Assembly (NCBI GenBank): GCA_004377355.1
Contig: SOIB01000066.1
Location: forward strand, 1-52,030
Source of the DNA: Candidatus Stahliibacteriota bacterium
GTDB taxonomy: Bacteria; Hydrothermota; UBA3072
Direction: 5' to 3'
Length of the DNA stretch: 52,030 bases
The notes under the pieces are model-generated. The model saw nothing but the letters and a program-made list of their open reading frames with translations, was not told the origin of the DNA and made no database searches. Of the stretch, positions 6,997-30,795 are shown piece by piece. Each line of letters opens with the position of its first letter. Position 1 is the stretch's first letter. The translations under genes and the position numbers were made by a program.

Positions 6997-7554
6997 TTAT
7001 TTCCTTTCGGAGTAATCTCCAGTTCTTGTATCTATAACTACCTCATCCCCCTCGTCAATGAATAGCGGTACTTTCACTGTAGTACCTGTCTCCAATACAG
7101 CTGGTTTTGTACCTCCCTGAGCTGTGTTGCCCTTTACACCCGGTTCAGTTGACGTAACTGTTAAAGTTACAAAATTGGGAAGTGATATTCCAAACACTCT
7201 TCCTTCTGTAATCCTCACTTTATATTCCATACCCTCTCTTAAATAAGCTTTAGTTGAACCTATCTTTGATTCTTCTATAGCATATTGCTCAAAATTTTCC
7301 ATATCCATAAAAATATAATTTATATCATCCTTATAGAGGTACTGTGTTTCTCTTTCTTCCAACTTTAACAATTCAAAATTGTCACCTTTTTTAAATGTTT
7401 GTTTAATTGTCGATCCAGTTTCAAGGTTTTTTAGAGTAGTTCGGACAAAAGCCTGTCCTTTACCTGGATTTACGTGAAGGAAATCTACCACTTCGTATAT
7501 TGATTTGTCGAATCCTATTATTAAACCCTTCCTGAGGTCACTTACTGAACCCAT
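6997..7554 (-). CDS. efp: elongation factor P
   Basis: HVNPGKGQAFVR; PGVKGNTAQGGTKPA; VPLFI..G...IDTRTG.Y. Confidence 0.97.
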   Translation of the reverse strand: MGSVSDLRKGLIIGFDKSIYEVVDFLHVNPGKGQAFVRTTLKNLETGSTIKQTFKKGDNFELLKLEERETQYLYKDDINYIFMDMENFEQYAIEESKIGSTKAYLREGMEYKVRITEGRVFGISLPNFVTLTVTSTEPGVKGNTAQGGTKPAVLETGTTVKVPLFIDEGDEVVIDTRTGDYSERK

Positions 7555-7555
7555 C

Positions 7556-8626
7556 TTATAGGACTATCAATTCCCTTTCAGAGTTAGTTAATACATCACC
7601 TCTTTTATTACGAATCGCAACTATATCTTCAATACGTATACCTTGATATTCAGGTAGATATATACCAGGTTCGATTGTAAAGACCATTCCGTTTTCCACA
7701 ATTCCATTATGGTTTTTAATTGAAACAACTGGCGCCTCGTGAACATCTAAACCTACACCATGCCCTAATGAATGGGTAAAATATTTCCCATACCCACTAT
7801 TTTCTATGTAATTCCTGGCAATTCTGTCAAGGTCTTTCAATTTGGTTCCCTCTTTAGTAGCTTCTCGAGCAAGCTTTTGCGCCTGATAAACTACATCATA
7901 GAGATCCTTATCTTTATCTGTTGGAGTGCCTACGAATACAGTTCTTGTCATATCAGAAGCATAACCTCTATAATAAGTGCTAAAATCCATCACGACAAAT
8001 TCCCCTCTCTTAATCTTTTTATCTGAGGCAGTTCCATGTGGAATAGATGAACGAAATCCTGAAGCAACAATGGTATCGAATGCTACCTTTTCACCTCCCA
8101 ATTTCTTCATTCTGTATTCCAACTCGGCTGCAATCTCTATCTCTCGAACCCCAGGTTTTATATAATCTAATACTTCTAAAAATGCTTTATCACTTATCTC
8201 ACAGGCTTTTTTAATATTCTTAATCTCCTCCTTTGTCTTCTTAACTCTTAAATCTTCAATAAAAGAATCAAAACTCTTGAATTTTAACCAGTCGAACTTC
8301 TTTCTTAACTCCCAGTAGAGATTATAGGAAACGTGTCTTGATTCGAAACCTATACGGTCTTTTCTCTTTATAACTCTTTGAGTTGCAATCTCTTTAAAAT
8401 ATTTCTTCCTGGTTAAACAAACCTCTACATTATGAACCCGATCTACTACTTCACCTTGAAATCTGTAATCTGTTATCAGTTTTACCTTACGGGGAGAGAT
8501 AAAAAGAATACCGGCATCACCGGTAAATCCTGTCAAATAATATATATTCTTTAATGAAGTTACTAAGAAGCAGTCGATATTATTACTTTTAAACTTACTC
8601 TGTAATTCTTTTATTCGATCGGGCAC
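7556..8626 (-). CDS. Xaa-Pro aminopeptidase (M24B)
   Basis: NIYYLTGF, SDMTRT, HSLGHGVGLDVHE, TIEPGIY, GIRIED. Confidence 0.93.
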   Translation of the reverse strand: MPDRIKELQSKFKSNNIDCFLVTSLKNIYYLTGFTGDAGILFISPRKVKLITDYRFQGEVVDRVHNVEVCLTRKKYFKEIATQRVIKRKDRIGFESRHVSYNLYWELRKKFDWLKFKSFDSFIEDLRVKKTKEEIKNIKKACEISDKAFLEVLDYIKPGVREIEIAAELEYRMKKLGGEKVAFDTIVASGFRSSIPHGTASDKKIKRGEFVVMDFSTYYRGYASDMTRTVFVGTPTDKDKDLYDVVYQAQKLAREATKEGTKLKDLDRIARNYIENSGYGKYFTHSLGHGVGLDVHEAPVVSIKNHNGIVENGMVFTIEPGIYLPEYQGIRIEDIVAIRNKRGDVLTNSERELIVL

Positions 8627-8628
8627 AA

Positions 8629-10089
8629 TTATTTCCCGCTCAAACCATCAATCCAATCATGAAAACTATCATCATCTTCCCCCTCCACCTCCTTTGATTT
8701 ATCCTGAATCTCTCCTTTCTTAAATCCTTCAGTTTCTATAGGTGCTTTTTTATCTAACTTTGAAAAAATACCTTCATCACCTTCTTCTTTACCACTTTCA
8801 CTTAAATCCTTTTTCTTTGCTTCACTCTTTAATTCATCAATTTTCTTCTTTATCTCCTCATCTTTATTTTTCTCATATAATTCTTCATAGATTTCTAAAG
8901 CTTTATCAACAAATCCTCTTTTTTGATATAACTCTGCTAGCTCTGGAGTTAATCTTCTTTCCTCGGAAACCTCCCTTTCCCTGGCTACTTCAACTTTTAC
9001 CTCCTCCTTTTCTTCTTCAATAGGAATAACAGCTTCTTCAATTTCTTCTAACTTTTCTACCTCTTCTTTTTCTTCCCCTATTTCTTCAAATTCTTCAATC
9101 TCTTCGTCAATACTTTCATCTCCAAATACCTCTGTAAATTCCATCTCCTCCTTATGAGCTACCTCTTCAACTTTCTCTTCCTCTATCACAGTAGCTTCGG
9201 GAGGTTTCTCTTCGCTTTTTATTTCCTCCTCTTGCTTTCCAAAGAACTCTTCAAATCCGAATTCCTCTTTAACTTCTTCTGCTTCATAAGCAGTGGACAC
9301 TTCCTCCTCTACTTCTTCCTCTTCCAGTATCTCCTCTACAGCTTCTTCTTCTGGCTTTTGGATCTCCTCAAATTCCATAGTCTCTTCTTCTCCTATCCCT
9401 TCATCAAGGGAAAAGATACTCTCAATTTCCTCTTCAGAAACTTCTTCTGTAACTTTTTCTTCCTCGCCAGGAACTTCAGATAATTCAGGTTCTTCCTCCT
9501 TTAATTCCTCTCCTTTCAAGCCTTCAATGTCTATTTCCTCAAAACTAGATTTTGGTTCTCCTTCAAGTTTCTCCTCTTCAACTACTAACTCTTCCTCCTC
9601 TGCTTCTGGTTCTTCCTCTAAACTGGGGAATTCTTCTCTTTTGAAGTATGAGGACAATCCCTCTTCACCTAATCCTCCTACTTCTTTACTTTCCTTTTCC
9701 TCTATCTCTCGGAGCATCCTTTTCGCTTCCCTATCCAAAGGGTCTAATTCTAATAATCTATTTAATACTCTTTTAGCACTTATGTTATCATTCTGCTCCA
9801 TATATAACTCGCTGAGTTCCTTTAAAGCAAGGATGCTCTGTCTATCTAATTTAGATGCTGTATCCAGATGCTTTATAGCCTGCTCTATTCCCTTTTTCTC
9901 TTTAAAACATCTTCCAAGAACCAAGAATCCTGTAGCATATTCAGGATGCTTCTCTATCCCTCTTTCTGCTATTTCTATTGCTTCCTCTAAAAGTCCTTCC
10001 TTTCTTAATAGATCTGCATATTGAGCAAATAAAAGAGAATCCGGATCTTTTTCCAGGCGTTCTTTAAGTCTATTTAATTCATCACTCAT
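8629..10089 (-). CDS. TPR protein with long Glu-rich low-complexity linker
   Basis: N-terminal TPRs (FAQYADLLRKEG...HPEYATGFLVLGR), acidic middle, late TPR (TPELAELYQKRGFVDKALEIY), C-terminal DDSFHDWIDGL. Confidence 0.85.
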   Translation of the reverse strand: MSDELNRLKERLEKDPDSLLFAQYADLLRKEGLLEEAIEIAERGIEKHPEYATGFLVLGRCFKEKKGIEQAIKHLDTASKLDRQSILALKELSELYMEQNDNISAKRVLNRLLELDPLDREAKRMLREIEEKESKEVGGLGEEGLSSYFKREEFPSLEEEPEAEEEELVVEEEKLEGEPKSSFEEIDIEGLKGEELKEEEPELSEVPGEEEKVTEEVSEEEIESIFSLDEGIGEEETMEFEEIQKPEEEAVEEILEEEEVEEEVSTAYEAEEVKEEFGFEEFFGKQEEEIKSEEKPPEATVIEEEKVEEVAHKEEMEFTEVFGDESIDEEIEEFEEIGEEKEEVEKLEEIEEAVIPIEEEKEEVKVEVAREREVSEERRLTPELAELYQKRGFVDKALEIYEELYEKNKDEEIKKKIDELKSEAKKKDLSESGKEEGDEGIFSKLDKKAPIETEGFKKGEIQDKSKEVEGEDDDSFHDWIDGLSGK

Positions 10090-23304: not shown

Positions 23305-24345
23305 TCAGAAGGAATACTGTGCTGAGAGTCTATAGTTTGATGTTTCAAATTCATATATTTCTTGATCTGCTGAAATGTCAAAATAAAAGGTCTTATACTG
23401 GAACCCTGCTCCAAATGTTGGACCTACCCTTTTACCTATTCGGTCAATAAAATACCCCGACCTTAAAGAGAAAAGCTCATTAAAGATATATTCTATACCA
23501 GCTGCCTTCCAGGTATCTTCCCATATCCCGCTAAAGTCAGTGTAATCATCAATATTTACAATGATTTTTGTTAAGTCTATATTAAATCTCAGTTGATGGC
23601 GTTCATTCTCAAGAATTCCAAGTGAAGAACTTAATCGAATAGTTCTGGGAAGAGGATCAGAATTGCCACCTTCAATATAACGTATCTCTGTTCCCATATT
23701 CTGAAAGGCCAGTCCCAGACGTAATACACTAAGCCAATCCATTCCTAAGGCATTAATATTCATAAAATTATTCCATCTGTAAAAAACTGAACCATCTAAT
23801 GCCCATGCATGGCCTGTACCTCCACTTAAAACACCACCAATCTCTCTTCCTAATTCTTCAATTACATCATCAGGAGCCAAAAAGGAATATATATACTTCA
23901 TACCAAGAGAAAGACCCAGTTTTTCCGAAACGGGCATTGTTCCCGCTAATTTAATAGCAATATCATAAGTAATCCATTCCCTTTCTAATCCACCTACTGT
24001 GGCCAAGGTTCTACCGGTGGTTAGATAAATTATTGTAGCTGTAAAATTAATATCTCCTGCAACTGGCATCAAAAACGCAAGATATTCATAATACATACCT
24101 GGATAAAGTCCTGGTAACCAATTTGAGTGTTGGAGACCAATAATTTTCTTTTGAGTAAATGCCAAGCATGCATTATTGTAATAAGTTGAGAATATATCAC
24201 CCTCTATAGCTCCAAAAGCTCCACCCATCGAAGTTGCTCTTGAACCTGGGAATATCATTAAAAAAACCGCTCCGGCTTCAAGTGAACTTGAGAATAGTGG
24301 TAGCACACAAACCAATAATGCAAAAACAATCAATATTCGTCTTAT
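23305..24345 (-). CDS. PorV/PorQ-family outer-membrane barrel (T9SS shuttle-like)
   Basis: FLMIFPGSRATSMGGAF...STYYN..LAF...HSNWL typical of PorV; amphipathic strands; terminal Phe; probable ATA start at 24345. Confidence 0.8.
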   Translation of the reverse strand: MRRILIVFALLVCVLPLFSSSLEAGAVFLMIFPGSRATSMGGAFGAIEGDIFSTYYNNACLAFTQKKIIGLQHSNWLPGLYPGMYYEYLAFLMPVAGDINFTATIIYLTTGRTLATVGGLEREWITYDIAIKLAGTMPVSEKLGLSLGMKYIYSFLAPDDVIEELGREIGGVLSGGTGHAWALDGSVFYRWNNFMNINALGMDWLSVLRLGLAFQNMGTEIRYIEGGNSDPLPRTIRLSSSLGILENERHQLRFNIDLTKIIVNIDDYTDFSGIWEDTWKAAGIEYIFNELFSLRSGYFIDRIGKRVGPTFGAGFQYKTFYFDISADQEIYEFETSNYRLSAQYSF

Positions 24346-24753: not shown

Positions 24754-25269
24754 ATGAAAAAACTCAAAAGTAAAATTAGAGATATTCCCGATTTTCCAGT
24801 AAAGGGCGTCCTCTTCAGAGATATTACAACACTCTTAAAAGATATAGACGCCTTTAATGAGTCAATAGAACGCATGGCTGAAATCATAAAAGAAAAGAAA
24901 GTAGATAAAATCATTGGAATTGAAGCACGTGGCTTTATCTTTGCTGCTCCAATTGCCTATAAACTAAAAGTCCCTCTTAACCTGATCAGAAAACCTGGTA
25001 AACTACCTGCAGAAACCGTAAGTGAATCTTATAAACTTGAATATGGTGAGAATACAGTGGAAATACATAAAGACGCAATCACTAAAGGAGATAAGGTGGT
25101 AATATGTGACGATCTTCTTGCAACGGGTGGAACTGCAAAAGCCAGTGCACAGCTTGTTACAAGACTGGGAGGAGAGGTTGTTAGTATTCTTTTTCTTATT
25201 GAATTAACAGACTTAAAAGGCAGGGATAAACTAAAAGACTATCCTGTGGATTCTATCTTAAAGTATTAG
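24754..25269 (+). CDS. apt: adenine phosphoribosyltransferase
   Basis: DFP..G.LFRDIT, EARGF, RKPGKLP, LEYG, DDLLATGGT. Confidence 0.97.
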   Translation: MKKLKSKIRDIPDFPVKGVLFRDITTLLKDIDAFNESIERMAEIIKEKKVDKIIGIEARGFIFAAPIAYKLKVPLNLIRKPGKLPAETVSESYKLEYGENTVEIHKDAITKGDKVVICDDLLATGGTAKASAQLVTRLGGEVVSILFLIELTDLKGRDKLKDYPVDSILKY

Positions 25270-25622
25270 AAAAAATCAAAATCAAAGCCTTTCCATCTCA
25301 TGATAGTCTAATATTAACATAGCATCCTCGTTTCACAAATTTAGGTTCTATATTTTTACAAACCTATGATAAAGCTTGACGACCTTTGAATTTCTCATTA
25401 GAATATTGGACTCTAGTATGTTCAGTAGAATCAGATTTTATATCACGAGAAGGTCATAAAATCCGTTATTGCACTTCAGAATCAAAAAATCATGAAACTT
25501 CTCGTTTTTTACAAATTAAAAGGATGGGTAGGAGAAGCGTTTGTTTACAAATTTTTTTTATATGGGACAAATAAATTGTAATATGCAAATATATGTCGCA
25601 TTATGCATTAAATTTAGAAAGT

Positions 25623-25668
25623 TAACTTATTGATTCGTGGGCGATTAATTTTTGGCATAAAAATTGTT
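25623..25668 (+). promoter_or_regulatory. IHF site plus sigma54-like promoter upstream of the pilin
   Basis: Minus-strand AATCAATAAGTTA matches WATCAANNNNTTR; TTGGCATAAAAATTGTT gives -24 GG and -12 GT (one mismatch). Confidence 0.5.
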
Positions 25669-25681
25669 GTATATTTGCGTT

Positions 25682-26077
25682 ATGAAGTATAAAATTAATA
25701 TTGGGTTTACTTTGATTGAATTAATGATTATAATAGTAATCATCGGAATCCTTGCTGCTATCGCAATCCCTAATATTATAAAAATTATAAACAGGGCGAA
25801 GGAAGCTAGGGTTAGGAGTAATATTCATACCGTGCAATTTGAGGTAGAGTTATATCAAGTTGACCATCCCGAGAGTTATCCATCAGATGTTGATGTAATA
25901 AAGCACCATCTCCCAGCACATTTGAAGAACCCCTTTAATGAGACGAACCCTGTTCTTCAATATGCGAGTGATCTTGATATCGATGGAGTGGTTGAGTGCA
26001 ATTCGGAAATTCTACGAAAAATGGATTTTTTTTTAAATACCATTGACAAATTGTCCATTATTATTTATAATTGCTAA
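25682..26077 (+). CDS. type IV pilin / pseudopilin (prepilin N-methylation motif), C-terminus probably truncated
   Basis: G|FTLIELMIIIVIIGILAAIAIP, RAKEARVRSN, NPF; last ~25 codons overlap a consensus promoter. Confidence 0.8.
   Translation: MKYKINIGFTLIELMIIIVIIGILAAIAIPNIIKIINRAKEARVRSNIHTVQFEVELYQVDHPESYPSDVDVIKHHLPAHLKNPFNETNPVLQYASDLDIDGVVECNSEILRKMDFFLNTIDKLSIIIYNC
26043..26071 (+). promoter_or_regulatory. perfect consensus sigma70 promoter for the four-gene cassette
   Basis: TTGACA-17 nt-TATAAT. Confidence 0.8.
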
Positions 26078-26083
26078 GGTGAT

Positions 26084-26524
26084 ATGATGTTATTATGGAT
26101 TCCTTTACTTATATGTGGGCAAACACCGGTAGAGATTAATTTCTCCAACCGAGAAGCACTGGCTTTAGAGATAACAGTGAAGGATCTGTATATTGGACTT
26201 GTGAATCCTGCAACAGGACCTATTGAAATCCCCGGAGCAATTGAAGGTAAGATATATGCGAACACTAATTGGGTTCTGATAAGTTCAACACAAGAAGATT
26301 TTATATCATTAGAAGGAAATACAATTCCTATTAACCGATTAAAGTGGAGGGTCGGTGGTAAGGATTACAGCCCATTCAAAATGGGAGATGTTCATTTATT
26401 GGAAGGTAACCCAACGAGTGAAGATGGAATGTATTTCTCTGTGGATTTGATGCTGGATCTGAAATGGAAAGATGAAGCAGGGGAATATTCCACAAAGTTG
26501 ATGTTTACCGTTATGAAACAATAG
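26084..26524 (+). CDS. secreted pilin-like subunit (Csu/spore-coat-U/WxL-like beta sandwich)
   Basis: Hydrophobic N-terminus; NTNWVL, IPINRLKW; C-terminal strand AGEYSTKLMFTV. Confidence 0.6.
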   Translation: MMLLWIPLLICGQTPVEINFSNREALALEITVKDLYIGLVNPATGPIEIPGAIEGKIYANTNWVLISSTQEDFISLEGNTIPINRLKWRVGGKDYSPFKMGDVHLLEGNPTSEDGMYFSVDLMLDLKWKDEAGEYSTKLMFTVMKQ

Positions 26525-26538
26525 AAAGGAGGTATAAA

Positions 26539-27078
26539 ATGCGTAGATTTATTTATTTGATTCTTCTTATACCGTTTGTAGTATTTGCGATTGGGACTTC
26601 AAAAGGTGATTCTCCTCAATCTCAAACAGCCACTCTTACCCTCAAGATTTCCAACAGTGTTGGTATAACAGTTAACAATGATGCAGAGTGGGATTTCACT
26701 ACAGTGCCCAATTTCCCACCAGATGTCTTCCCTCAGTACTATTATCCAACCACCCCAGCCTCGAGTCCTTATCAGCAACTTGAGTACATGGTTTATGGTG
26801 CGGCTGTAGGAGTACTTTGGGAGGTCATTGTTTCTGGAGACGGAGATCCAAACCCTGCCTGTGGTATTCTGCTTGGAGATATAGAATTCAGTGTAGCTGG
26901 TGCGGAGTCATGGACTCCATTCCATACATCCGCTACGCCCGATCAGATTGCAAATGGTTCAGGCAAAACAGCTGGTTGGGTCTCACTAAATCAGGATTAC
27001 CGCGTTAATATAGATGGCGATGAGGTATCGACTGTCGGTTCAACCGTCACCATAACCTATACCATCCAGACTCTTTAA
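26539..27078 (+). CDS. secreted pilin-like subunit (probable major subunit)
   Basis: Strong RBS AAGGAGGT, signal peptide MRRFIYLILL, N-terminal strand QTATLTLKI, C-terminal STVTITYTIQ. Confidence 0.6.
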   Translation: MRRFIYLILLIPFVVFAIGTSKGDSPQSQTATLTLKISNSVGITVNNDAEWDFTTVPNFPPDVFPQYYYPTTPASSPYQQLEYMVYGAAVGVLWEVIVSGDGDPNPACGILLGDIEFSVAGAESWTPFHTSATPDQIANGSGKTAGWVSLNQDYRVNIDGDEVSTVGSTVTITYTIQTL

Positions 27079-27121
27079 TGGTTAATAAAACTGGCCCTCC
27101 CTTCTAATCATTAATATGTAG

Positions 27122-27841
27122 ATGATAAATTTACTCCTTGCTGTTTCCCTCCTTGTTTCTCCTATGCGTATCGAAGTAACCACTTTACCGGGAGTGGTTA
27201 TGAAAGAAATTATTGTAAAGAATGCCGATGAATTCAATGAATCCCGGTTTGTTATTTATGAGGGGGATTGGAGACTTGATCCATGGGGGGTTGTATCGTA
27301 CTTTCCTCCTGGAAGCCTTACTACTTCATGTTCTGATTGGATTTCCATAAATCCCCGGGAATTTACCTTACCACCGGGTGAGCAGGAAGTAGTAAGGGTG
27401 ACATTTGATGTTCCTCCAGAGACAGAAGGCAGTTTCTGGAGCGTTATCTTCATTGAGGGAAAGCCGCCTGAGAGAGAAGAATGGACACCGCTTCTTCAAC
27501 TTGCGGGTAGAATTGGTATATCTACCTACCTCGAAATTGCCGGAACAGTGGTGCGGCAGGCTACTATCAAGGATATGAAAGTAGAGGATAACAACGTAAT
27601 TATAGAATTCTACAATGAGGGAAATCACTGGGTGAGGCCTGAGATCAAACTCTGGATTTCCAGAGGAAAAGAGAAGATATATTCTGATTCTGTTAAAACC
27701 TCTCTTGTGCTTCCTGAATCCAGGAGATACTATAAATTCAATCTGGATGATCTAGAACTCCATTCGGGTGACAGTATAATAACCCGGATAGATTATGGAG
27801 GAGAAAAAATACTGTTGGGGATCAAGGATATTAAATATTAA
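27122..27841 (+). CDS. PapD/DUF916-like pilus assembly chaperone
   Basis: VSPMRIE, WISINPREFTLPPGEQEVVRV, FWSVIFIE, NEGNHWVR. Confidence 0.7.
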   Translation: MINLLLAVSLLVSPMRIEVTTLPGVVMKEIIVKNADEFNESRFVIYEGDWRLDPWGVVSYFPPGSLTTSCSDWISINPREFTLPPGEQEVVRVTFDVPPETEGSFWSVIFIEGKPPEREEWTPLLQLAGRIGISTYLEIAGTVVRQATIKDMKVEDNNVIIEFYNEGNHWVRPEIKLWISRGKEKIYSDSVKTSLVLPESRRYYKFNLDDLELHSGDSIITRIDYGGEKILLGIKDIKY

Positions 27842-27847
27842 TCGATA

Positions 27848-29674
27848 ATGACCCTTTTTCTTATTTCGTTTACATATTTTTCCCAACTTAGCCATAACCT
27901 ATATCAGTATCAGGAAGAGACTTTTTCGGTTACAAGCTGGGGAATTGAACTTGAAGAAGATCAATGGACCATCTATTCCCGTTTATACAGATATCAAAGG
28001 ATGGCAGGGCTTAAGGAATTTACTTTCCGATACGATTCAATATTGATTAATAAGAACTATTATCATTTATTGGCTGGGGATAATAATAGAGTAAGAGGAC
28101 TTCTGGTTGGATCGAAAACAAAGGGTTTTGGGTGGGATTTGCAAGTAGGGAAAATGCAGGATATTATACCAGGCCCATTCCCAACCTATAATAGGAATCT
28201 CTTCTATTCTGAGTTAGATCTCAGCATTTCCGGTCATAATTTTTTCCTTATGGGTAGATGGGATAAAGATAGTTATCTACCACTCCTTGGAGACCAATTT
28301 GTGTTTAAACATGGAAACCTTAGTCTGTTGAACGACATTAAGATCAGTTATAGAGATCGCCCCGGGATAGCTTTATATGAAGATCTTTATTACAAAAGGC
28401 CCAATCTCTTCTTACGCTCATTTCTTCGTTATTTTAGTTCGGGATTTTCCGATAAAGAGAATATAGTTTACAGCAGGGGAAGGGTGAACTGGGGGATGAA
28501 TTCTTCATATAGGTTCCCCTCTGGTCTTTCTATCCATTCAGGAGCGGGGTTCAGAGGAATGTTGGATGAAAAACTGGAGTATCTGTTTTTGGGAGGGCTA
28601 TCTTTTTATATGCCGGGAAGGATCTCATTTGATTTTACCAATAATCTTATGGGGGGAGGATACAGGGATTGGGGATATAGGCGTTATCTCAGACTGAATG
28701 TGCCTTTCAAGCGGCATCAATTTCTAGTCAATTATGAAAAGAGTAGCATTAATAGGGAAAGGGAGTCCTTCGGTTTAGAAGGCCAGTTCTATCTTTCAAG
28801 TAGGAGCAGGCTGGATCTTTCCTTTGAAAGGATGAGTCTTTATGGATGGGATATCTCCTTTGGCGGAATGCTTTCTCCCTTCAGGAATCTCAAGACAAAC
28901 TGGAGATTCCAGTATCGAGAAGATCGTCTCTATTATAATACCTCTCTTTCCTGGATTGGTTGGGGGAATTGGATTGGTAGATTCGGTATAGCCGGGAATA
29001 CGGAGACTAATTCAAAACAATATCGACTTGAAATAACGAAAAGCGGTACTCTGGAGAAATTTGGCATCGGTGGGGTTACGGGTTTGGTCTGGCAGGATGA
29101 AAATGGAGATAGGATAAGACAGGAGGGAGAACCTCCAGTCAGGGATATTGAGGTAATCCTTGATGAAGAGAGGAGGACGAAGGTTGATGAGAGGGGCAGG
29201 TATAAATTCAGACTGATCCCGAAGGGAGAACATACCATAAAACTTGATATCAAAGGAGTTCCCGCCTTTTTAGGTACGGAAAGGGTTGAGAAAAGTTTTA
29301 CAAGTGGCTTCTTTGATGTACAGGTAATAGATTTTCCTATCTACGGACTTTCCTCTATTCAGGGTAGAGTCTACTACGATAAAAATCATAATTTAAAATG
29401 GGATCCCGATGAAGGAGGCGTGCCCAACGTAAGGGTAACAGTAAAGATAAAGAAGTTCGAGAAGTATACTTACACCTGGCAAAACGGTACATATCTTATT
29501 AGCAACCTTGTACCTGGAGTCTATACCGTTACTGCTTCCATTCTTCCTCCTGGCTATGAATTAAGTCCTAAGGGGCTGGTTTTATATATCGAACTCACTC
29601 CCGGAACAAAGATAAAAGGACTAAATTTTGGGGTGGCTACCCCGAAGAAAGAGGTAGAAATAAAAAGGTTCTGA
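27848..29674 (+). CDS. outer-membrane barrel-like protein with two SdrD-B/Cna-B domains (usher-like)
   Basis: Aromatic/Gly-rich amphipathic strands; GLVWQDENGDRIRQEGE and GRVYYDKNHNLKWDPDEGG motifs; terminal Phe. Confidence 0.65.
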   Translation: MTLFLISFTYFSQLSHNLYQYQEETFSVTSWGIELEEDQWTIYSRLYRYQRMAGLKEFTFRYDSILINKNYYHLLAGDNNRVRGLLVGSKTKGFGWDLQVGKMQDIIPGPFPTYNRNLFYSELDLSISGHNFFLMGRWDKDSYLPLLGDQFVFKHGNLSLLNDIKISYRDRPGIALYEDLYYKRPNLFLRSFLRYFSSGFSDKENIVYSRGRVNWGMNSSYRFPSGLSIHSGAGFRGMLDEKLEYLFLGGLSFYMPGRISFDFTNNLMGGGYRDWGYRRYLRLNVPFKRHQFLVNYEKSSINRERESFGLEGQFYLSSRSRLDLSFERMSLYGWDISFGGMLSPFRNLKTNWRFQYREDRLYYNTSLSWIGWGNWIGRFGIAGNTETNSKQYRLEITKSGTLEKFGIGGVTGLVWQDENGDRIRQEGEPPVRDIEVILDEERRTKVDERGRYKFRLIPKGEHTIKLDIKGVPAFLGTERVEKSFTSGFFDVQVIDFPIYGLSSIQGRVYYDKNHNLKWDPDEGGVPNVRVTVKIKKFEKYTYTWQNGTYLISNLVPGVYTVTASILPPGYELSPKGLVLYIELTPGTKIKGLNFGVATPKKEVEIKRF

Positions 29675-29946
29675 ACTTCCTCTTCCCCTTTAGGCTTCCA
29701 ACCCAGATTCATATTACCTCTTTAGCCTCAGTTACACATAAAGCATACAAGATTTTAAAGCGTATCTGTGCTCGGTCCGGTTACTGACCAATCCAGTTTC
29801 CTGTATCATCTGGGCCCCCATTGGGAAATAAAAAGGGACCAAGACGCTGTGGATAAGCTTTATAAGAATTACTAATAAATCAATTCTCTCATTTTTTAAA
29901 CATCTAAATCTAGGCGAAAAGCCCACCGATATATTGCCCAACACAA

Positions 29947-30522
29947 TTATCTCACCATTATTAACTTCTTGGATGAATTGTAATCCCCTGCCACAATCCT
30001 ATAGAAATACGAACCGCTTGGAACTTTTTCTCCTTTCTCATTTCTTCCATCCCAAATAACTGTATATTCGCCGGGTTCCTTTTTGCCCTCGACAAGAATC
30101 CTCACTAATTGACCTGCTAAATTATATATTTTGAGCGATACTTCCCCTTTTTCCTGAAGGATATAGCGGATTCTTGATTCCTTTACACCCTTAAAGAGTA
30201 TTTCATACACGCCATCCTCATTAACATCTATCAATCGGGGGCTCAAAAGTGGGTGATACCAACCACCGTAGCTGTCTGCACCATCCTCAATATAATTCCA
30301 CTTCTCAGATTCCCATTCTAAGTTTCCTGTAGTTCCATCAATTACAAGTATCCTATCGGAAAGAAAAACAACTTCTTTTGTTGCATCCCCATCAGTATCT
30401 TCACATCCAATAAAAAGATATGCTTCAGTGTCCCAAGTCTCTTGGTATTGAGCGCTTACTGGATAAACCATAAATCCAAAAATTCCAACCATGATTAGTA
30501 TACGGAATAAGTTTTTAAACAC
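29947..30522 (-). CDS. small secreted protein with FG-GAP-like motifs and FlgD-Ig/T9SS sorting domain
   Basis: GTG start after AAGGAGGT; signal peptide; DTDGD and DVNEDG motifs; IYNLAGQLVRIL...WDGRNEKGEKVPSGSYFYR...KKLIMVR. Confidence 0.8.
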   Translation of the reverse strand: MFKNLFRILIMVGIFGFMVYPVSAQYQETWDTEAYLFIGCEDTDGDATKEVVFLSDRILVIDGTTGNLEWESEKWNYIEDGADSYGGWYHPLLSPRLIDVNEDGVYEILFKGVKESRIRYILQEKGEVSLKIYNLAGQLVRILVEGKKEPGEYTVIWDGRNEKGEKVPSGSYFYRIVAGDYNSSKKLIMVR

Positions 30523-30795
30523 TTTAACCTCCTTATTTTTGCTTATTTTACAACAATATTTCTTCATAGGCAAGCTTTTCACCTAAATTTGTTGGAAGGA
30601 CGTAAATTATAAAATTAACTTACTATTACAATATTTTCATTCTCCCCCCTTTTATAAAATATAAACAGATAAATCAGACAAGCCAAAAAACCCTTATTTT
30701 CAATTCCTTTCTTCAAAATTCAGAAACATTAATAACTTCCCAAAATATAAGGTTTAAAAATGATTTTATAGTAATCATAACACGCTCCAAAAAAC

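Follow-up and report, generated by a model that had tools for sequence, protein, structure and literature searches.

A conserved four-gene module in a WOR-3 bacterium links WxL-like subunit candidates and a soluble WxLIP-related chaperone candidate to a putative outer-membrane SdrD-B protein

The usher of chaperone-usher pili is laid out as a 24-strand barrel with a plug, an N-terminal domain and two C-terminal domains, and the operons of these pili combine it with subunits and a soluble two-domain periplasmic chaperone. Donor-strand exchange is also described for systems of other build. In Enterococcus faecalis, the WxL cluster Elr builds a donor-strand-exchange pilus with an anchored chaperone and no usher (bioRxiv 10.64898/2026.10.17.759780; below, the Elr preprint). 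According to this preprint, the system is found only in Bacillota, although a small satellite of its chaperones comes from Actinomycetota; WxL chaperones are disjoint from those of chaperone-usher systems; a dedicated subunit ends and anchors the fibre; and a leucine-rich repeat (LRR) tip adhesin carries a C-terminal WxL module. Until 2026, the published view of WxL/WxLIP clusters was a 'platform' model (PMC10599100; Elr preprint). Immunoglobulin-like (Ig-like) pilins joined by donor-strand exchange also form the Pam pili of the Candidate Phyla Radiation, whose operons encode PapD/FimC-like, membrane-anchored chaperones and are usher-less, with no trans-envelope machinery proposed (PMC13278184). 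The TLP-1a/b pond fibrils, which are environmental and of unknown origin, are likewise held together by donor-strand exchange, and their protomer fold is described as common to many unannotated bacterial proteins (PMC11494351; PDB 9IKJ/9IKK). Here, we analyze four genes, A to D, in a 52,030-nt stretch of contig SOIB01000066.1 ("the window"; all coordinates refer to its forward strand) from a double-membrane bacterium of the candidate phylum WOR-3. The names carried by close homologues place the host in this phylum, and DNA nearly identical to that of the host is present in runs recorded as marine-sediment and cold-seep metagenomes.

We read the A-D block as a chaperone-assisted donor-strand fibre system of diderm bacteria that is related to WxL/WxLIP systems and whose usher is not PapC-like, and we give this reading a probability of roughly 0.55. 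A sequence-only reading of the window had placed a four-gene, chaperone-usher-like block at 26043-29674; four open reading frames (ORFs) are indeed found there, all co-directional on the + strand and separated by gaps of 6-43 bases. The same reading had named conservation of the neighbourhood as a check, and the genes do co-occur elsewhere. We consider A-B-C-D to be a conserved module, because the linkage recurs in two sets of loci, one assembled from D and one from C. The D-based set comprises 10 loci from 10 genomes, including loci at 27-29% identity and two from another WOR-3 family. C lies immediately 5' of D in all 10 of these loci and a B-like gene is present in all 10 (cut by a contig end in one, weak in another, E 5.6e-6), while an A-like gene is present in 8, one of the two absences being at a contig end. 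One genus shows the order B-A-C-D-B', with a second copy of B after D. Across this set we found no further conserved gene and no other linked outer-membrane candidate. The C-based set comprises 14 loci, chosen among the stronger matches of the C profile in WOR-3 families not previously sampled. The D model matched the next downstream ORF in 9 of the 13 loci having downstream DNA, and pilin-like genes lie upstream of the chaperone gene in 12 of the 14. One locus of this set has a 662 aa ORF in the D position that does not match the D model, and L047, L048 and L051 encode fused double chaperones of 528-532 aa, after which come unrelated ORFs of 426-536 aa in place of a D-like gene. Fused double chaperones were also observed in genomes G034, G068, G092, G096, G126 and G142; over all of these families they have 518-535 aa and comprise two full C-family units. 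Within the phylum, the C family profile matches 68 of 151 genomes at E<=1e-3, and a whole-genome search recovered D or, at the least, its C-terminal region in 25 of the 41 related genomes; relatives of D number just 21 in an index of 5.8 billion proteins. The conserved A-B-C-D order is that of an operon of subunits, periplasmic chaperone and outer-membrane protein, as in chaperone-usher systems, and the subunit genes adjoin the chaperone gene, as in the Elr/WxL clusters.

Comparisons of profiles support C as a remote but specific relative of the DUF916/DUF3324 (WxLIP) chaperones, and as a weaker relative of a chaperone-usher chaperone. An exhaustive phmmer search of a 50%-identity library returned 1858 relatives at E<=1e-3, of which 288 reached E<=1e-10 and 3 reached E<=1e-30, and 87 of these matches were chosen for an alignment and profile (A1). 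When the 87 relatives were scanned singly against Pfam, 32 matched PF06030 (WxLIP_PGBD, formerly DUF916), 24 matched fn3_5, 3 matched PapD_N weakly (best E 0.0018) and 2 matched PF11797. C of the window itself gave sub-threshold Ig-like matches only (fn3_5, Cep192_D3), and PF06030, PF11797 and PF00345/PF02753 are absent from its Pfam listing at E<=1. Against all PDB sequences, the best match of the C profile was EfmWxLIP1, with both domains aligned (9i25_C, E 4.7e-12; 9i1y_A, E 5.5e-12). The next was EcpB, a chaperone of an alternative chaperone-usher system (5dfk, E 1.1e-4), over a partial alignment spanning the strand ARIGTILVV, which matches GRIGISTYLEI of C; all remaining matches, other Ig proteins included, had E>0.01. 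The profile also scored 64-78 bits on three actinobacterial proteins annotated as DUF916, one of which exceeds the PF06030 threshold, and the source annotations of some C relatives read 'P pilus assembly chaperone PapD' or 'fimbrial biogenesis chaperone [Limnochorda pilosa]'. Of the PapD/DUF916-like chaperone proposed from the sequence, the WxLIP side was recovered as a remote homology and the PapD side as the weaker likeness to EcpB, but C stays below the Pfam thresholds for either.

The WxLIP-type chaperones of Bacillota and C differ in how they end. The C terminus of C (...GGEKILLGIKDIKY) has no hydrophobic stretch, and neither the 87 aligned relatives nor the 150 best matches include a protein with a C-terminal transmembrane-like segment. 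In contrast, such a segment is present in all three actinobacterial DUF916 proteins, and 96.7% of WxL chaperones are membrane-anchored according to the Elr preprint. All 87 relatives carry an N-terminal hydrophobic segment, and the two features together fit a periplasmic location. As judged by sequence, C is thus a soluble, secreted, two-domain Ig-like relative of the WxLIP chaperones that lies beyond the direct reach of the curated Pfam models; unlike the Elr proteins, none of the window proteins is reached by PF13731, PF06030 or PF11797.

Neither A nor B matched any model in Pfam or NCBIfam, fimbrial and SCPU families included. The two families are nevertheless paralogues (hhalign probability 96.2%, E 2.3e-9 over 138 columns), and their sequence features support A and B as paralogous subunit candidates with WxL-like features. 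In the A family alignment of 9 sequences, G38, N60, W63 and L65 are invariant. Directly after the signal peptide, both families show an alternating hydrophobic strand ending in F or L, which reads V-E-I-N-F in A and V-Q-V-G-F or V-D-V-G-F in its homologues, and T-A-T-L-T-L in B and mostly A-T-L-T-F or A-D-F-N-F in its homologues. By sequence pattern, these strands resemble the WxL pilin donor-strand consensus, [S/T]8-x-[G/A]10-x-[V/I]12-x-F14, given in the Elr preprint. A and B also have in common a W-x-L/V strand, occurring once per protein with a second position that reads F-T-V in A and Y-T-I in B, and a last strand of the type G-x-Y-x-T-x-L/I-x-F/Y-T-L/I. The pilin-type terminal strands quoted in the sequence-only reading are both present, at residues 132-143 of A and 168-177 of B. 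The W-x-L strand, a last strand of G-x-Y...T-x-T type and the N-terminal alternating strand all resemble features of Elr/WxL subunits.

Profiles of pilin-like proteins extended these likenesses. A9 was built from 15 proteins of distant lineages, A8 from 40 sequences, and A10 includes A and B of the window. The best PDB match of A9 was 9i25_A, a 'WxL domain surface protein' (E 0.0016, profile positions 24-167), with both the W-x-L strand and the last strand lined up; this chain belongs to the same PDB entry as EfmWxLIP1, the best match of the C profile. A9 and A10 further matched, over its full length, a 214 aa protein encoded on a Cellulosimicrobium plasmid (28.7 and 20.9 bits), the gene of which immediately precedes a PF06030-positive DUF916 gene, and the best scores among 1502 shuffled or reversed control sequences were 8.2 bits for A9 and 9.4 bits for A10. 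This test on a small protein beside a DUF916 gene is firmer than the 9i25_A match, which is fragile. The match to a Rossellomorea plasmid (E 9) was dropped, as the locus is not a WxL locus. The top PDB matches of A8 were TLP-2 and TLP-1, which are non-significant (E 0.11 and 0.42) and a lead only; they extend over about 60 residues, covering the N-terminal strand and the W-x-L strand, of protomers that have 236-237 aa. In the ESM Atlas, the feature clusters nearest to B are unannotated proteins of about 180 aa from Bacteroidota and Thermodesulfobacteriota (0.95), and the nearest Pfam-bearing cluster is WxL (0.91, 166 shared features), again as a lead only. In structure, B has as its neighbours (TM-score 0.58-0.68) proteins of 180 aa from Bacteroidota and Gemmatimonadota as well as the C-terminal parts of LRR/DUF285 proteins from Saccharimonadota. 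The latter recall the LRR tip adhesin of Elr with its WxL module, and they also touch on the Pam pili. A word-indexed search with the B-family alignment added 6 distant proteins, none with a Pfam family.

It could be held that A to D are merely adjacent, functionally unrelated secreted Ig-like proteins and that the matches reflect generic beta-sandwich similarity. A, B and C lack any above-threshold Pfam match, and weak profiles can yield spurious matches at E 0.01; yet the gene order holds throughout the phylum and recurs in other phyla at 20-30% identity, the C profile aligns to both WxLIP domains at 4.7e-12 when other Ig proteins in the PDB remain at E>0.01, and shuffled controls reach at most 9.4 bits against the 20.9-28.7 bits observed. 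We regard this explanation as disfavoured and very improbable.

The large protein D is the partner that has no counterpart in Elr. Two SdrD-B domains with DxNxD/N loops had been noted in this 608 aa protein, and both are found by Pfam (SdrD_B, PF17210, twice, E 1.3e-17, 64.4 bits against a cut-off of 29.7), together with CarboxypepD_reg. SdrD_B is present in 13 of 13 D homologues, and residues D417, N419, D511, N513, D519 and E522 of the loops are invariant among the 13. Searched against the PDB, the D profile found SdrD (1.7e-22), SdrD-B domains being the sole matches. The C-terminal 200 aa of D are thus alike to the staphylococcal MSCRAMM SdrD in consisting of two SdrD-B domains with conserved D/N loops, but D fuses them to a putative outer-membrane barrel rather than to a cell-wall-anchored stalk. 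For the first 400 residues there is no match in Pfam or among PDB sequences. The pre-computed Atlas model of D (pLDDT 0.76, pTM 0.50) places this part at TM-scores of 0.74-0.87 to the N-terminal parts of proteins bearing CarboxypepD_reg, SdrD_B or SpaA from Acidobacteriota, Synergistota, Bacteroidota and Pseudomonadota, and also to DUF6029 proteins. Among named clusters, D comes closest by Atlas features to families of outer-membrane barrels and porins (0.85-0.87), as a lead only. D contains 14 amphipathic dyad segments, compared with 5.2 +/- 1.9 in 200 column shuffles (maximum 12). These models and patterns point to the first ~400 aa as a putative outer-membrane barrel. The results support D as an invariant partner within the module and not as a PapC-type usher, which bears out the non-canonical large component proposed from the sequence. 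Its description as a minimal usher held only within the window's clade: 608 aa is small by comparison, but D-like partners outside this clade have 839-1090 aa.

The module extends beyond the phylum. A tblastn search of plasmids with C gave matches on three from Deinococcus, the best of which covers 95% of C at E 1e-8, and one to an Acinetobacter pilus chaperone at E 1e-4. All three Deinococcus loci (L028, L029, L039) encode one or more small hypothetical proteins, a C-family chaperone and then a large protein, of 839, 1013 and 1090 aa. The A1 model scored 5e-61 and 2e-44 on the two Deinococcus chaperones that were scored, and in the two large proteins scanned, Ig-like domains of the Cep192/HYDIN kind lie at the N terminus and CarboxypepD_reg/SdrD_B domains at the C terminus. 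Neither the small Deinococcus proteins nor the putative barrel parts are matched by the pilin and D models. One of the Deinococcus chaperones is annotated as 'FimB/Mfa2 family fimbrial subunit', apparently in error and on the strength of a 21.7-bit Mfa2 match. Metagenome contigs found via a chaperone motif add three further sets with a chaperone and a D-like protein, with pilin-like genes alongside the D-like protein in two of three contig sets. In L033, the D-like protein has 940 aa (D model 4.1e-29) and is accompanied by three pilin-like genes (A2/A3 models, 1e-5 to 1e-7) and a chaperone; a second chaperone-like gene is also present. The D-like protein of L036 has 900 aa (1.8e-17) and occurs with a chaperone and an A-like gene (6e-10), and that of L030/L031 has 975 aa (1.3e-38) and occurs with a chaperone. 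The D-model matches on these proteins span the SdrD-B tandem and the tail and, in L036, also the last strands before the tandem. Pfam finds N-terminal Ig-like domains in the long metagenome proteins, and in two long D-like proteins Porin_4 matches mid-protein, at 27.4 bits (cut-off 27) and, under the cut-off, at 25.0 bits. In addition, a contig labelled Thermotogae carries a B-like gene near a gene for a 403 aa chaperone.

The long D-like forms thus follow the usher domain order, with an Ig-like N-terminal domain, a barrel and two C-terminal sandwich domains, but D itself lacks usher similarity and its clade lacks the N-terminal domain. One explanation that builds on this lack of similarity makes D an outer-membrane anchor or terminator instead of a secretion pore. 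Its SdrD-B stalk would hold the fibre, or be exposed like the passenger of an inverse autotransporter, while C aids polymerisation and export takes another route. SdrD-B and PKD domains are typical of surface-exposed proteins, and an N-terminal barrel followed by C-terminal Ig-like domains is the layout of intimin and invasin; a dedicated subunit terminates and anchors the fibre in Elr (bioRxiv 10.64898/2026.10.17.759780). The gene content argues the other way, since no other outer-membrane candidate is linked where C and D adjoin, in 10/10 and 9/13 loci. The beta-rich part of D, at ~400 aa, is far above the size of a 12-strand anchor barrel, and the usher-like order of the long forms also speaks against a mere anchor. 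On balance we find this explanation unlikely.

Under the donor-strand fibre reading that we prefer, the system would operate in the manner of chaperone-usher pili, and A and B would be Sec-exported Ig-like subunits, B probably the major one and A probably a minor or adaptor subunit. The fold of each subunit would first be completed by a strand of the soluble periplasmic chaperone C, around LLQLAGRIGISTYLEIAG, and this strand would then be displaced by the N-terminal psi-x-psi-x-F strand of the next subunit in donor-strand exchange. D would be the outer-membrane component, its N-terminal barrel serving as the site of assembly and exit, and its two C-terminal, calcium-binding SdrD-B domains would act like the C-terminal domains of ushers in handling chaperone-subunit complexes.

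Several results weigh against this reading. The usher model PF00577 is not listed at E<=1 for D or for 12 homologues, and the PDB search with the D profile returned no usher at E<=10. The SdrD-B domains of D may lie outside the cell, because such domains are typical of surface adhesins and a PKD domain is present in one D-like protein. On the subunit side, PF13731 (WxL) found nothing in A or B at E<=1, nothing in the host genome at E<=10 and nothing in 5 other genomes or records holding C-family loci. Only one of the five pilin-like profiles found a WxL protein in the PDB; A2, A3, A8 and A10 found none at E<=10, and the best PDB match of A10 was the unrelated eukaryotic protein MAPKAP1 (E 0.01), so that an E value from these profiles in the range of about 1e-2 to 1e-3 cannot be relied on by itself. 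PF06030 likewise found nothing in the host genome at E<=10. The C family is not bound to a single function, because contigs of the Acetothermia/Bipolaricaulota type (L023, L024, L025) encode dockerin-fused C-family domains beside a subtilase or a cohesin/dockerin protein and have neither pilin-like nor D-like neighbours, which suggests that the same Ig module is used in a cellulosome-like context. Finally, the segments at the starts of A, C and D (26084, 27122, 27848) are very short (~11-15 aa), uncharged and hydrophobic, and starts further upstream are impossible, with in-frame stops just 5' of each ATG. B of the same clade, unlike A, C and D, has a canonical signal peptide, and all four homologues have one in another WOR-3 family (L020, L021).

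The versatility of the C-family domain, seen in the dockerin fusions, also bears on whether there is a fibre at all. A and B might be monomeric Ig-like proteins that form a static complex with C on or under the outer membrane, with D an adhesin or porin that they decorate. This corresponds to the view of WxL/WxLIP clusters held in print until 2026 (PMC10599100). Against it, a WxL cluster does build a donor-strand-exchanged polymer, according to the Elr preprint (bioRxiv 10.64898/2026.10.17.759780). Moreover, the N-terminal alternating strand of A and B is kept across lineages at 13-30% identity, and the pattern of subunit gene duplication is typical of major and minor pilins. We therefore judge a static complex quite unlikely and retain the donor-strand fibre reading.

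The kind of system would be a known one, that of chaperone-assisted donor-strand pili. What sets the module apart from the WxL/WxLIP system is the soluble chaperone, the absence of LPxTG/sortase anchoring and the protein that joins a putative barrel to SdrD-B domains. A to D carry no LPxTG motif or C-terminal anchor when the sequences are read by eye, and no sortase is encoded in the cluster; the host is a diderm of WOR-3, in contrast to the Bacillota from which Elr-type systems are reported. A full-text literature search found no published description of this diderm module. More tentatively, at somewhat less than even odds, the module may be one member of a widespread, undescribed pilus pathway of bacteria with diderm or atypical envelopes, which would combine WxL-type subunits, soluble WxLIP-type chaperones that prime them and, as the site of their assembly, a new porin-like SdrD-B/CarboxypepD_reg usher unrelated to PapC. 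In that case its range would take in WOR-3, Deinococcota, Thermotogota-like bacteria and Limnochordia and, going by pre-computed models, possibly Bacteroidota, Acidobacteriota, Gemmatimonadota and others.

The coordinates of the locus are given in Table 1.

Table 1. Features of the A-D locus and its flanks (positions in the window)
Feature	Position	Strand	Description
PorV/PorQ-family gene	23305-24333	-	NCBIfam 8.9e-47; flanks the cluster
Type IV pilin/pseudopilin-like ORF	25682-26077	+	N_methyl motif; weak GspG, PilA and ComGC matches
Sigma-70-type promoter-like site	26043-26071	+	TTGACA-17-TATAAT; 12/12 consensus match
Gene A	26084-26524	+	146 aa; candidate pilin-like subunit
A, N-terminal strand	26129-26143	+	VEINF; follows the short N-terminal hydrophobic segment
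A, invariant N..W.L	26261-26278	+	from the family alignment
A, C-terminal strand	26477-26512	+	AGEYSTKLMFTV
Gene B	26539-27078	+	179 aa; candidate pilin-like subunit
B, N-terminal alternating strand	26626-26652	+	TATLTLKIS; from the family alignment
B, W-x-V/L strand	26815-26832	+	from the family alignment
B, C-terminal strand	27040-27069	+	STVTITYTIQ
Gene C	27122-27841	+	239 aa; candidate soluble secreted two-domain Ig-like chaperone, WxLIP/DUF916-DUF3324-like
C, candidate donor (G1-like) strand	27491-27544	+	LLQLAGRIGISTYLEIAG
Gene D	27848-29674	+	608 aa; putative outer-membrane barrel and two SdrD-B domains
D, N-terminal part	27848-29050	+	~400 aa; beta-rich, putative outer-membrane barrel
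D, C-terminal part	29063-29674	+	two SdrD-B/prealbumin-like domains, basic tail
D, first DxNxD/N loop	29090-29122 region	+	WQDENGD; residues 415-421
D, second DxNxD/N loop	29372-29413	+	YYDKNHNLKWDPDE; residues 509-522
D, basic tail	29624-29671	+	K..I..K.F ending in Phe; conserved, aligns in D-like proteins of other lineages
Small protein with FlgD-Ig/T9SS C-terminal sorting domain	29947-30582	-	flanks the cluster; T9SS, type IX secretion system

The perfect promoter attributed to this block is an exact match to TTGACA-17-TATAAT and its sole exact copy in the window, and it lies within the 3' end of the type IV pilin-like ORF that precedes A. Two sites with at most one mismatch were found against 0.76 expected (14 of 100 shuffles gave 2), and promoter-like sites overall are not enriched in 25200-30000 (17 against 14.2 +/- 3.7 expected). 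Only 13 nt separate the end of the -10 hexamer from the ATG of A, which would put the transcript start about 6 nt before the ATG and the Shine-Dalgarno sequence of A (AAGGTGA) at or beyond that start. In a ~97% identical strain, seen in other runs, the -35 element reads TTGGCA. Since there is almost no leader before the Shine-Dalgarno sequence and the -35 element varies in the related strain, we take the site as a plausible promoter whose function is not established. Good Shine-Dalgarno sequences precede both A and B. The GC content of the A-D block, which had been described as richer than its flanks, is 0.410 compared with 0.361 for the window, and only 4.5% of 3.6-kb windows equal or exceed the block, so that the enrichment is real, if modest. 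Horizontal transfer was set aside as its cause, the module being syntenic throughout the phylum.

We asked whether the type IV pilin-like ORF upstream of A might be a fifth component, and rejected this because tblastn found no copy of it beside any homologous cluster. It is in frame with A, from which it is separated by a TAA and two codons, and in a related strain its 3' tail lacks one base, at 26026. C and D also share a reading frame, with only a TAA and two codons between them (27839-27850), and a genome search carried the C match upstream through a TAG; we took both as coincidence. Given the PorV/PorQ gene and the T9SS sorting domain on either side of the cluster, the host is likely to possess a type IX secretion system. 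One WOR-3 family (L020, L021) has genes for NtrC-like response regulators upstream of the module. In L036, an unrelated contig, two ORFs downstream were read as a two-component pair from their N-terminal sequences alone, and one of them reads like a response-regulator receiver; these genes may be dedicated regulators. In L033, an O-antigen ligase (Wzy_C) plus TPR protein, at 7308-8975, comes after the second chaperone-like gene, which hints at a link to surface glycan assembly or to glycosylation of the subunits.

The C family is a large WxLIP-related family (1858 representatives at E<=1e-3, 288 of them at E<=1e-10) that is soluble, occurs in diderm lineages beyond the reported range of WxL, and travels with a putative outer-membrane partner of an architecture unlike that of PapC. 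If our reading is true, chaperone-assisted strand exchange would be older and more widespread than either known branch, and passage of the outer membrane would have been solved at least twice. On the more tentative reading, as one member of a widespread pathway, the module would be the missing link between the Gram-positive WxL pilus and the Gram-negative chaperone-usher pili, and some of the donor-strand-exchange fibrils that environmental cryo-electron microscopy has left unassigned might derive from it. The cultivable Deinococcus strains that carry the module on plasmids offer a route to experiment.

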